Shown: in pieces, positions 32,233 to 33,625 of the stretch
Position numbering within the stretch: the stretch's first letter is position 1
Layout of the letters: each line of letters begins with the position of its first letter
Virus record (IMG/VR): IMGVR_UViG_2778261504_000023
Span: 1-40,045 of that record
Origin: a virus
Taxonomy: Duplodnaviria > Heunggongvirae > Uroviricota > Caudoviricetes
Strand: one strand, 5' to 3'
DNA: 40,045 nt
Translations under genes and position numbers: made by a program
The notes under the pieces: generated by a model
Told to the model about the DNA's origin: nothing
Seen by the model: only the letters and a program-made list of their open reading frames with translations
The model's database searches: none

Positions 32233-32919
32233 TCAGAAGAACCCTGCCTTGTCGTTGATGTATTCCGCGTGAGTCTGGATATCACGCAGGCATTTGCTCA
32301 CACCGACGATGTAGCAGAACATGGTGGTCAGCTCCGCCGCCGCGCCCGATACATCGTGCCCGTCGTCCTGCAACTGGTTCAGCAGATTCATCAGCAGTGA
32401 GTTCTCCGTCAGGCCGAGAACACCAGACGGGGAATGAATCAGGCTGCGGTAGCCGGGCTTCAGCGGGGCGCTGTAGGTTTTGTTCTCTACCTTCATTGCC
32501 TGCATCACTGCTGATGCTGTGGCGCTGGCTACCTGGTCGGCAACCATCTTTATGCGTTCTTCCTGCGGGAGCGAGTTTTTAATGTAACTTCCGGTGCGGC
32601 GGATCTGAGAAACAACCTCACCTGTAACCCATTTACGAAAGCGGTAGGGGATAGTGCCTGGTGTCACTGCGTCGCGGCAGCGGAGGATCAGTGTGTAGAG
32701 GCCTGACTCGTTGATAATATTGGTTTCGCCTTGACGGCCTAAGTTAAATTTAGCCCTTTCATCATCATCAAGAGATTTTATTGACATAGTGGGGTTTGTC
32801 AGTTGAAGAGCTTTAATAACGTCTTTGGCAACAAACCAAGGATTTCCATCAATAACAATGGCTCGAATGGTTGCTTCTGATTCAAAATGAAAAACAGATG
32901 GGGTTACGTTAGCAGTCAT
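32233..32919 (-). CDS. Bro-N (KilA-N/Ant N-terminal) domain protein, antirepressor-like
   Basis: About 228 aa from ATG 32919 (SD AAGGTGA); FHFESEATIRAIVIDGNPWFVAKDV...NESGLYTLILRCRDA...FRKWVTGEV matches Bro-N consensus; C-terminal domain paralogous to 33232..33489. Confidence 0.7.
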   Translation of the reverse strand: MTANVTPSVFHFESEATIRAIVIDGNPWFVAKDVIKALQLTNPTMSIKSLDDDERAKFNLGRQGETNIINESGLYTLILRCRDAVTPGTIPYRFRKWVTGEVVSQIRRTGSYIKNSLPQEERIKMVADQVASATASAVMQAMKVENKTYSAPLKPGYRSLIHSPSGVLGLTENSLLMNLLNQLQDDGHDVSGAAAELTTMFCYIVGVSKCLRDIQTHAEYINDKAGFF

Positions 32920-33185
32920 AGTGATCACCTTTGTAGTTAGGTTAATCACCACTACCGACGCCAATCGGTTGGTGGTGAACTGTGCAGGGTTGGCGTAACC
33001 GGCTACAAAGGACCCGGCGCACCTTTCGGTGCCCCCACACAGCCCACCATAGAATAGGTGCGCTTTACACATAAAAAAACCGCTTATGCGGCATATGTGC
33101 CTCTGTAGTAACCCGGGACGCCAATCCCGGCACTGGATTTTGCCAGTGCCCGATTACTATGGCACAAGAGGAGTGCGATGTAAAT

Positions 33186-33200
33186 TTACCGCAAAGGTAA
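33186..33200. promoter_or_regulatory. Palindrome TTACCGCAAAGGTAA in leader upstream of bro-N gene
   Basis: Perfect TTACC-N5-GGTAA. Confidence 0.55.
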
Positions 33201-33231
33201 ATATAAGCACTCCTCTTGGTGATTTCAAATC

Positions 33232-33489
33232 TTATCTGGTTTGTTTTCGTAATTGTTCGGCACAATAGTCGAGATGTGTTTGCAGATCCTGCATAGACAT
33301 CTGTGAGCTGGTGACGTAGTTAATCAGTGCAGTCAGTTCGGCAAGTGGGCCATCGACATTAAATCCATCCTTATCGAGATCCCGGAGTAATTTCATCAAG
33401 TGCGATCCCTCCACTAGTGATCTGACGCCTCCCGGCGTGTGAATCCTTTCGGTAAATCCGTCTTCCAGTGGATAGTGATACTGCTGCAT
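33232..33489 (-). CDS. Small antirepressor-like protein (85 aa), paralogue of C-terminal domain of the Bro-N protein, LexA-box controlled
   Basis: ATG 33489 with SD GGAG; IHTPGGVRSLVEGSHLMKLLRDLDKDGFNVDGPLAELT...DLQTH aligns with IHSPSGVLGLTENSLLMNLLNQLQDDGHDVSGAAAELT...DIQTH of 32233..32919; perfect LexA box 22 bp upstream. Confidence 0.55.
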   Translation of the reverse strand: MQQYHYPLEDGFTERIHTPGGVRSLVEGSHLMKLLRDLDKDGFNVDGPLAELTALINYVTSSQMSMQDLQTHLDYCAEQLRKQTR

Positions 33490-33510
33490 CTTATCTTCTC
33501 CATGCAATAA

Positions 33511-33526
33511 CTGTATATTTATACAG
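33511..33526. promoter_or_regulatory. LexA box (SOS box)
   Basis: AACTGTATATTTATACAGTA: CTGT-N8-ACAG with AT-rich spacer, matching enterobacterial consensus TACTGTATATATATACAGTA; overlaps candidate -10 TATAAA on minus strand. Confidence 0.7.
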
Positions 33527-33565
33527 TAGCAAATAATTTGTTTGCTATCCAGCACGTTTTGCAAA

Positions 33566-33625
33566 TTACCCGAAAGGTAATATCTATTCGTATTTATGGG
33601 TTATCTATCCATATGTGGTTTTTAA
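33566..33625. promoter_or_regulatory. Divergent regulatory region: palindrome TTACCCGAAAGGTAA and TATGTGGTTTTTAA motif upstream of tail fibre gene
   Basis: Palindrome 33566..33580; 14-mer TATGTGGTTTTTAA at 33612..33625 identical to 8098..8111. Confidence 0.5.

Follow-up and report, generated by a model that had tools for sequence, protein, structure and literature searches.

How does a temperate phage leave lysogeny when its repressor bears no sign of a self-cleaving domain, and what do two related antirepressor genes, standing side by side, contribute to that step? The question is raised by a locus in a 40,045-nucleotide stretch of viral DNA (Caudoviricetes; IMG/VR record IMGVR_UViG_2778261504_000023), here called the window when the whole stretch is meant. 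Judged by its sequence, the window is a phiV10/epsilon15-like (Uetakevirus) temperate phage of Escherichia coli and the locus its prophage-induction module, which matches TL-2011b, ZX5, phiV10 and the O157 typing phages at 93-97%. Two antirepressor cassettes stand in tandem on the minus strand: first the small gene ant, then an isrK-like RNA, a C4-type antisense RNA and the gene of a Bro-N protein. We consider it probable that they form a tandem induction module in which ant is gated by LexA and the Bro-N gene by the C4 RNA, in the manner of the immI locus of phage P1. The homologies, motifs, RNA family matches and covariation reported below come from the present analysis; for the mechanism of Ant-Rep binding we rely on phage SPC32H, and for a pro-lytic action of the Bro-N protein on ZX5.

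The small antirepressor and its repressor

The first cassette and its presumed target involve two genes (lengths in amino acids, aa):

33232..33489, minus strand: ant, encoding an 85-aa antirepressor of the SPC32H type; ATG at 33489..33487, Shine-Dalgarno sequence GGAG at 33498..33501
5103..5687, minus strand: rep, encoding the phage repressor (194 aa, helix-turn-helix only), the presumed target of Ant

Ant matches one sequence in the Protein Data Bank (PDB), chain E of entry 5D50 ('Anti-repressor protein'; E 4e-47, residues 2-84), and Rep matches chain A of the same entry ('Repressor'; E 3.5e-42, residues 1-190). Entry 5D50 is the Rep-Ant complex of Salmonella phage SPC32H. Ant is about 86-89% identical to SPC32H Ant (86% against the translation from the SPC32H genome, KC911856) and 100% identical to its ZX5 homologue; it matches phrog_450, and a word-indexed search returned 136 close homologues, mostly of 85-86 aa. 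No Pfam family scored above threshold for Ant, and a match to DUF724 (17.6 bits vs a cut-off of 38.4) was discarded as noise. In SPC32H, ant is placed and oriented as in the window, lying directly before the tailspike gene and diverging from it, and the same LexA box precedes it.

A preliminary description of the window had noted that the repressor lacks S24 autocleavage motifs, and Pfam bears this out, finding only helix-turn-helix families (HTH_3) in Rep and no Peptidase_S24. Nor did tblastn with E. coli LexA as the query detect S24-like sequence elsewhere in the window (sole match E 9.9). Every testable feature of the SPC32H-type Rep-Ant family is present, namely a small Ant, an S24-less Rep and a LexA box at the ant promoter. 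The idea that induction proceeds through a LexA-derepressed antirepressor rather than through repressor autocleavage is thus strongly supported, both by the 5D50 matches of Ant and Rep and by the conserved box described below. Since the two proteins have homologues in the SPC32H Rep-Ant system, the LexA-Ant-Rep mechanism is correct and has already been demonstrated in a homologous phage; this logic of the DNA-damage (SOS) response is established for the phage family, and the window adds another member.

The preliminary description took Gifsy-type prophages as the precedent. The closest one is instead the homologous and structurally solved system of SPC32H (Kim and Ryu 2013 J Virol; Kim et al. 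2016 PNAS; PDB 5D50, 5D4Z), which resembles the window in Ant, Rep, the place of the LexA box, gene orientation and palindrome spacing; Gifsy and 186 Tum are only functional analogues. SPC32H differs in that its ant stands alone, with a neighbouring gene about 50 bp past its stop codon, whereas the window adds the isrK-like RNA, the C4 RNA, the Bro-N::Ant-like gene and a 210-aa gene. Rep has also diverged much more between the two phages than Ant. According to the relevant passages of two secondary accounts (PMC9638917, PMC9986798), SPC32H Ant binds Rep and breaks up its DNA-binding tetramer, and the C-terminal tetramerisation domain of Rep is the part that Ant binds (PMC9986798). A passage of PMC7380047 groups the Kim and Ryu 2013 study with LexA-controlled antirepressor systems. 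By analogy, Ant of the window phage would bind its own Rep, and the system would work like the Gifsy (GfoA/GfhA) and 186 Tum antirepressors while not being placed in their family. SPC32H Rep is reportedly not cleaved in the SOS response, and SPC32H Ant is said to be structurally distinct from Tum and from GfoA-type antirepressors.

The LexA box and the ant promoter

Upstream of ant lie the following elements:

33511..33526: core of the LexA (SOS) box, CTGTATATTTATACAG; the 20-mer AACTGTATATTTATACAGTA at 33509..33528 agrees with the consensus TACTGTATATATATACAGTA at 18 of 20 positions
33523..33551, minus strand: predicted ant promoter, with -35 hexamer TGGATA (33551..33546), a 17-nucleotide (nt) spacer and -10 hexamer TACTGT (33528..33523), overlapping the LexA box

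The box had been called perfect, which holds for its CTGT-N8-ACAG core and not for the full consensus, from which it departs at two positions; 21 nt separate it from the ATG, not 22 as first given. It is the sole site in the window with at most three mismatches to TACTGTATATATATACAGTA, and none is expected by chance (100 shuffles). Two other matches to CTGT-N8-ACAG, at 14256 and 18798, have GC-rich interiors and were rejected as not LexA-like. The position of the box is conserved in six phages (SPC32H, Tyrion, phiV10 and L008, L009 and L010, the last three being prophages from Klebsiella and related hosts), and in their alignment both arms are kept at a fixed distance from the ATG. If the palindrome were a chance match or the site of another protein, ant would lie outside SOS control, and the replacement of CTGT by ATGT in one arm in the Klebsiella-type relatives might be taken to point that way. 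Given the zero chance expectation and the conservation in six phages, however, we regard this as extremely improbable.

The promoter hexamers were read by eye from the alignments, in which CTGGA(T/A)A and TA(C/T)(A)TGT are kept across the six phages; on this reading the LexA box would overlap the ant promoter. In SPC32H, a single base change in the LexA site reportedly makes Ant constitutive.

On the plus strand, the interval 33600..33684 contains a conserved sequence, GGTAATAGAAT, about 60 bp before the start of the tailspike gene. This sequence, with a half-palindrome and a -10-like hexamer TAGAAT, does not vary between the window, SPC32H, Tyrion and phiV10. It may be a tailspike promoter that has control elements in common with the ant promoter diverging from it.

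An old paralogue of Ant fused to Bro-N

The second cassette ends in a larger gene:

32233..32919, minus strand: gene of the 228-aa Bro-N antirepressor, with the Bro-N domain at residues 18-102 (32614..32868) and an Ant-like domain at residues 147-224 (32248..32481)

The protein carries a Bro-N domain (PF02498, E 7.7e-19) and matches phrog_130 ('anti-repressor Ant', E 6.6e-53) and phrog_450, the family of Ant, at residues 145-226 (E 6e-36). The proposed paralogy with Ant holds: Ant residues 2-79 align without gaps to residues 147-224 of the Bro-N protein with 31 of 78 identical (40%; BLASTP, E 2e-15). The gene start assigned at 32919 is likewise correct, a longer open reading frame (ORF) from 33072 overlapping the C4 RNA. 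An AlphaFold2 model of the protein, built without an alignment, reached a pLDDT of 36, too low to be of use.

The Ant-like domain is narrowly distributed: an exhaustive profile search of 1.84 billion proteins yielded 64 clusters (50% identity). Some copies are free-standing proteins of about 80-95 aa, and the others form the C-terminus of longer proteins (about 130-320 aa), in which the N-terminal partner is Bro-N, AntA, Rha or ORF6N; these fused forms surfaced only in the exhaustive search, the word-indexed one having returned close and mostly free-standing relatives. Across free and fused forms, 21 alignment columns are invariant. Small Ants are 61-100% identical to one another and Bro-N-fused domains 65-100%, whereas small and fused forms share about 36% in every comparison. 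Because each group is closer within itself throughout, the duplication appears to be old and both lineages to have been kept. The order ant, isrK, C4 and a large antirepressor with an Ant-like C-terminus was found in Tyrion, ZX5, L008, L009, L010 and L011. The pairing of a free with a fused form, which had been thought unusual, thus recurs (in Tyrion, ZX5, phiV10 and Klebsiella-type prophages), and the two-gene layout extends over prophages of Escherichia, Enterobacter and Klebsiella.

This paralogue of Ant at the C-terminus of the Bro-N protein is thus of old origin, and it is most likely the repressor-binding part of a second antirepressor, which would act on the window's own Rep. Alternatively, it might bind another repressor, that of a co-resident or superinfecting phage, so that the two proteins would have two specificities, one for self-induction and one for cross-talk. 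A divergence in specificity would be expected to leave such a pattern, paralogues only about 36% identical that are kept apart across genera. Shuffling has also put the Ant-like domain behind N-domains of the Bro-N, AntA, Rha and ORF6N types, and the part of PMC7380047 that treats Gifsy and Fels-2 documents antirepressors acting in trans from one prophage on another. The 21 columns invariant between free and fused forms argue against different targets, however, as does an experiment in ZX5, whose ORF4 is the ortholog of the Bro-N protein (identity 80% for the whole protein and 98% within its final 86 residues). In the sections of PMC9782041 that describe it, overexpression of ORF4 altered the lysogeny of the same phage, lowering the prophage titre from 10^9 to 10^6 plaque-forming units (PFU)/mL, and reduced transcription of its repressor by 75%. 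Nor did a second repressor gene come to light, although no search was aimed at one. We regard a different target as unlikely.

An RNA cassette ahead of the Bro-N gene

The 312 bp between ant and the Bro-N gene are dense in RNA features on the minus strand (Rfam matches are given with bit scores and gathering thresholds):

33156..33184, minus strand: predicted promoter of the RNA cassette, TTTACA, 17 nt, (TG)CCATAGT; 9 of 12 consensus positions, with TG before the second hexamer
33110..33162, minus strand: c4-a1b1 motif (RF03163), 44.1 bits, just below the gathering threshold of 46.7
33073..33149, minus strand: isrK-like RNA (RF01394), 74.7 bits, threshold 50
33118..33124 and 33100..33108, minus strand: b1 UUGGCGU and a1 CUACAGAGG, inside the isrK-like RNA
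33073..33092, minus strand: intrinsic terminator GCCGCATAAGCGGTTTTTTT, at the 3' end of the isrK-like RNA
32968..33054, minus strand: C4-type antisense RNA (RF01695), 79.5 bits, threshold 45, full length (1-87); hairpin loop a' CCUUUGUAG and single-stranded b' ACGCCAA
32958..32964 and 32928..32936, minus strand: targets of C4 in the Bro-N leader, b2 UUGGCGU and a2 CUACAAAGG

A region of 331 nt is far more structured than shuffled sequence (z = -8.4). Complementarity is exact both between a' and a2 (9 nt) and between b' and b2 (7 nt), and a2 covers the Shine-Dalgarno sequence of the Bro-N gene, AAAGGUGA, 8 nt before the AUG at 32919. In the window, no leader ORF of the icd or orf45 type precedes the Bro-N gene, since a2 lies 8 nt from the AUG with no ORF between them; L009 has a 168-aa ORF ahead of its ORF6N gene. 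A match to the Rfam family Trp_leader (E 0.73) was dismissed as noise.

The 5' end of the isrK model falls 7 nt downstream of the predicted promoter, which is kept in Tyrion, ZX5, L008, L009 and L010. Another candidate, running from 33228 to 33200, agrees with the promoter consensus at 10 of 12 positions; it was set aside in favour of the one from 33184 to 33156, which is conserved in the relatives and whose start fits the isrK 5' end.

The preliminary description had placed the Bro-N gene downstream of ant. This is right as to position, but the two genes do not make up one simple SOS unit, for a terminator, the isrK-like RNA and the C4 RNA intervene. As the C4 RNA is complementary to the Bro-N Shine-Dalgarno sequence and covaries with its target (see below), the Bro-N gene is better seen as part of an RNA-gated cassette like P1 immI than as a simple member of a LexA unit. 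By analogy with immI-type control, C4 would be processed by RNase P and repress in trans.

Spurious gene calls overlie the C4 RNA in several genomes: an 'ash family protein' in ZX5 (1727..1840), a Bro-N protein extended to 281 aa in L010 (3420..4265) and, in the window, a 279-aa ORF (32233..33072).

Covariation of the C4 RNA with its targets

We compared the C4 pairings at eight loci, those of the window, Tyrion, phiV10, the Shiga-toxin (Stx) phage vB_EcoP_phi296, Salmonella phage SW-37, L008, L009 and L010; the loop of ZX5, read by eye, is of the phiV10 variant. The a' loop takes six variants over the eight loci, and a2 matches it in every case:

window, Tyrion and L010: a' CCUUUGUAG, a2 CUACAAAGG
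phiV10 (ZX5 likewise): a' CCUUUUAG, a2 CUAAAAGG
Stx phage: a' UCCUUUUUC, a2 GAAAAAGGA
SW-37: a' GGUUGA, a2 UCAACC
L008: a' CCUACUAG, a2 CUAGUAGG
L009: a' CGUUUAG, a2 CUAAACG

The upstream copy, a1, is exact for five of the six a' variants. For the variant of the window, exactness is seen in L010; the a1 of the window and Tyrion (CUACAGAGG) still pairs, with a single G-U wobble. For SW-37, the comparison gave no exact a1 match of at least 6 nt. The b elements have two variants only: Tyrion alone carries AGACCAA as b', and both of its targets, b1 and b2, then read UUGGUCU. This covariation of loops and targets indicates that the antisense pairing is functional, and that C4 covaries with its target implies selection on regulated expression of the Bro-N gene.

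Such selection bears on the possibility that the Bro-N gene has lost its function and survives only as a duplicate in decay or as debris of recombination, in which case its paralogy with Ant would be a matter of history. The viable temperate phage phiV10 gives this idea some substance, its Bro-N gene (1500..2191, minus strand; annotated as two ORFs, p23 and p22) being frameshifted after residue 181, so that little of the Ant-like domain is left; provided that the shift is not a sequencing error, phiV10 would be a natural knock-out of the second antirepressor. SPC32H, moreover, is without the whole second cassette. On the other hand, intact genes whose C-terminal domains are 65-98% identical occur in Escherichia, Enterobacter and Klebsiella prophages, the controlling RNA covaries with its target, and the ZX5 ortholog has an overexpression phenotype in the account of PMC9782041. 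Decay thus seems very unlikely, while the frameshift in the fused domain does suggest that the second antirepressor is dispensable.

The C4 controller extends beyond these phages. The interval 32945..33053 is 85% identical to an element in well over 100 records of Stx1- and Stx2-converting phages, most of which leave it without annotation or give it as a small hypothetical ORF. In the one such record examined, vB_EcoP_phi296, the element (2501..2608) lies in the nin region, ahead of a 225-aa 'Ant' gene whose product is unrelated to the Bro-N protein of the window (E 0.32). We accordingly dropped the Stx match as a sign of a common antirepressor; that a homologous C4 cassette precedes an unrelated Ant indicates that the RNA cassette is modular, a portable controller. 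The same isrK/C4 controller thus appears to gate an antirepressor-annotated gene in Shiga-toxin phages. In SW-37, a locus of the Gifsy-1 type (1295..2203) matches isrK (46.2 bits, below gathering), C4 (61.9 bits) and isrJ (101.7 bits) and includes a leader ORF. As this locus shows, the STnc1160 region described for Gifsy-1 (PMC4825925) is a member of the C4 family; the part of that paper's discussion that deals with the region likens it instead to P4 CI.

Operator-like palindromes

The sequence TTACC-N5-GGTAA occurs at 12 sites in the window (at most one mismatch) against 0.53 expected, and all of them are intergenic:

15-bp palindromes starting at 5031, 5743, 5791, 8050, 8112, 11626, 11644, 14786, 32153, 33186, 33566 and 36841
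33566..33580: palindrome TTACCCGAAAGGTAA, 40 bp upstream of the LexA box core, with the same spacing in SPC32H, Tyrion, phiV10, L008, L009 and L010
33186..33200: palindrome TTACCGCAAAGGTAA, abutting the -35 hexamer of the isrK/C4 promoter
32153..32167: palindrome TTACCCTTGAGGTAA, the third of the module, upstream of the 210-aa gene
33165..33176 and 33208..33219, minus strand: 12-bp perfect inverted repeat caagaggagtgc / gcactcctcttg in the 3' untranslated region (UTR) of ant, just after the stop codon

Palindromes flank rep, one (5031) just downstream and two (5743 and 5791) in the rep-cro spacer, and many precede operons, as in that spacer and ahead of the genes at 11661, 15112 and 36907. SPC32H has 18 of them with the same distribution, three copies lying on each side of rep. 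From the clusters flanking rep and from position, the palindromes are probably Rep operators, and together they would probably constitute a scattered-operator regulon, bound by Rep and comparable to that of P1 C1. The palindrome at the isrK/C4 promoter recurs in identical form (TTACCTTTGCGGTAA) at this promoter in L008 and L010 and as a one-base variant in L009, while the C4 cassette of the Stx phage has a different promoter from which the palindrome is absent. In the window, this palindrome is bracketed by the 12-bp inverted repeat, which forms a 12-bp stem in the predicted fold; ZX5 keeps only 7 bp of the repeat, and that of Tyrion differs.

A proposed mechanism and its weighing

The elements described above suggest the following course of events. 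In the lysogen, host LexA would sit on the box overlapping the ant promoter and block ant, while Rep probably blocks the RNA-cassette promoter and C4 would silence any leaky Bro-N message. Upon DNA damage, LexA would be cleaved and Ant made, which, by homology to SPC32H, would bind the non-cleavable Rep, break its tetramer and free the DNA. The promoter of the second cassette would drive the isrK-like RNA with its a1/b1 decoys, and read-through of the terminator would yield C4 and then the Bro-N gene. By pairing with a2 and b2 in the Bro-N leader, a' and b' of C4 would cover the Shine-Dalgarno sequence and turn translation off, so that Bro-N translation might be set by the balance of C4 and the a1b1 decoy. 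A possible coupling of the two cassettes, suggested by their arrangement, is taken up below.

Several points weigh against this account. The promoter hexamers of ant are weak, a consensus scan did not report them, and no convincing consensus promoter for ant was found; the c4-a1b1 motif scores just under its gathering threshold. Rep of the window has diverged markedly from SPC32H Rep, sharing by eye about half of the aligned residues with it, against 86% identity for Ant, and the Ant-Rep mechanism as applied here leans on secondary accounts and PDB molecule names. The ZX5 experiment used an overexpressed GST fusion, and repressor binding was outside its scope in the sections of PMC9782041 that present it. 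The frameshift of phiV10 and the fact that SPC32H works with the small Ant alone, without any of the second cassette, both count against a necessary role of the Bro-N protein.

Comparison with known systems

The second cassette is most readily compared with the immI locus (c4, icd, ant) of P1 and P7. In both, C4 is flanked by a1b1 and a2b2, with the downstream sites lying over a ribosome-binding site before the antirepressor, loop specificity varies between relatives, and an operator of the phage's own repressor is probably present at the promoter; in P1, C1 acts at Op51, the immI promoter. The window differs from P1 immI in having no icd-like leader ORF, so that C4 is aimed at the Shine-Dalgarno sequence of the antirepressor itself, in the terminator between a1b1 and C4, and in the LexA-controlled paralogous antirepressor directly upstream.

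This likeness leaves room for a reading that overlaps in part with the one we prefer, in which the second cassette is an immI-type determinant of anti-immunity or heteroimmunity acting at infection or superinfection, with C4 specificity deciding which relatives are blocked and with no role in SOS. The order a1b1, c4, a2b2, antirepressor is that of P1 immI, and a' differs between close relatives with the targets matching (CCUUUGUAG in the window, CCUUUUAG in ZX5 and phiV10); a matched change of loop and target is said to underlie P1/P7 heteroimmunity. In L008, two genes separate the cassette from ant, which implies that it can work apart from the LexA unit. However, no terminator was found between ant and the isrK-like RNA in the window, ZX5, Tyrion, L009 or L010, so that ant runs into the RNA cassette there, and the homologous isrK locus of Gifsy-1 feeds into prophage induction in the sections of PMC4825925 concerned with it. 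A pure immunity function is possible but, to our minds, rather doubtful.

We therefore keep to the tandem induction module, for which Gifsy-1 provides a further comparison. As presented in the relevant parts of Hershko-Shalev et al. 2016 (PMC4825925), the Gifsy-1 locus isrK-orf45-anrP-isrJ likewise has an isrK RNA whose terminator is leaky, followed by a processed RNA and by an antirepressor gene whose translation is silenced through the structure of its leader. Gifsy-1 also has a separate small antirepressor under SOS control (LexA-controlled Gifsy antirepressors, Lemire et al. 2011) and so is a precedent for two differently gated antirepressors, but the two are encoded at different loci, and no paralogy between them is known. 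The Gifsy-type cassette of SW-37 differs from that of the window in its a' loop and in having a leader ORF. In phage N15, the immA locus (cA RNA, antA/B/C) is said to bring LexA, the phage's own repressor and a small processed RNA to bear on one antirepressor operon, which carries all the inputs; the RNA reportedly acts through premature transcription termination, like P4 CI. Set against N15, the window splits the inputs over two promoters and two paralogous effector genes.

ZX5 is the nearest phage with experimental data. It has the Bro-N ortholog ORF4, with an identical small ant and the isrK and C4 RNAs upstream, and differs in the a'/a2 pair (CCUUUUAG / CUAAAAGG). PMC9782041 treats ORF4 as the antirepressor of ZX5; the word 'LexA' is absent from its text, and its passages on ORF4 bring up neither the small Ant nor the C4 RNA, nor that the C-terminus of ORF4 is homologous to SPC32H Ant.

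A possible relay between the cassettes

As no terminator precedes the one at 33073..33092, SOS-induced ant mRNAs should carry a1 and b1 in their 3' UTR. This would allow a relay in which decoys on the ant mRNA absorb C4 and unlock Bro-N translation while Ant, by inactivating Rep, frees the operator at the isrK/C4 promoter. In addition, the SPC32H Ant fold would be what binds the repressor in a class of Bro-N, AntA, Rha and ORF6N antirepressors whose C-terminal module has long gone unassigned. In Gifsy-1, according to the corresponding sections of PMC4825925, short IsrK acts in trans to switch on translation of the antirepressor encoded downstream. We put this combined proposal forward tentatively, as one that may well turn out otherwise. 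If the relay is true, RNA and protein would form a feed-forward loop with positive feedback, leading to irreversible induction.

Other features of the window

Two further features were recorded:

31461..32093, minus strand: 210-aa gene following the Bro-N gene; phrog_1349 (E 3e-113), function unknown, no Pfam match
14390..14463, minus strand: tRNA gene inside the phage (Rfam tRNA, 73.3 bits)

The position of the 210-aa gene is occupied by other small genes in ZX5 and TL-2011b. SPC32H has a tRNA-Arg gene at the place equivalent to that of the tRNA gene.

Significance

Literature linking a C4 antisense RNA with an antirepressor and LexA was not found in our searches, and the tandem arrangement, the homology of SPC32H Ant to the C-termini of Bro-N, AntA, Rha and ORF6N proteins and the palindromes of the module appear to be undescribed in the literature searched. 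The composite joins three systems that have been studied separately, SPC32H Ant, P1 c4 and Gifsy-1 IsrK, and may be new. It suggests that a set of Bro-N, AntA, Rha and ORF6N proteins, annotated only as 'antirepressor', bind repressors through their C-terminal domain, and it shows ORF4 of ZX5 to be the second of two paralogous antirepressors, lying behind an unnoticed antisense RNA. As phiV10, TL-2011b and the O157 typing phages inhabit pathogenic E. coli, their induction is of some practical relevance. The module is also compact and open to experiment, and so lends itself to asking how a prophage might join a signal of DNA damage to a threshold or immunity signal carried by RNA.

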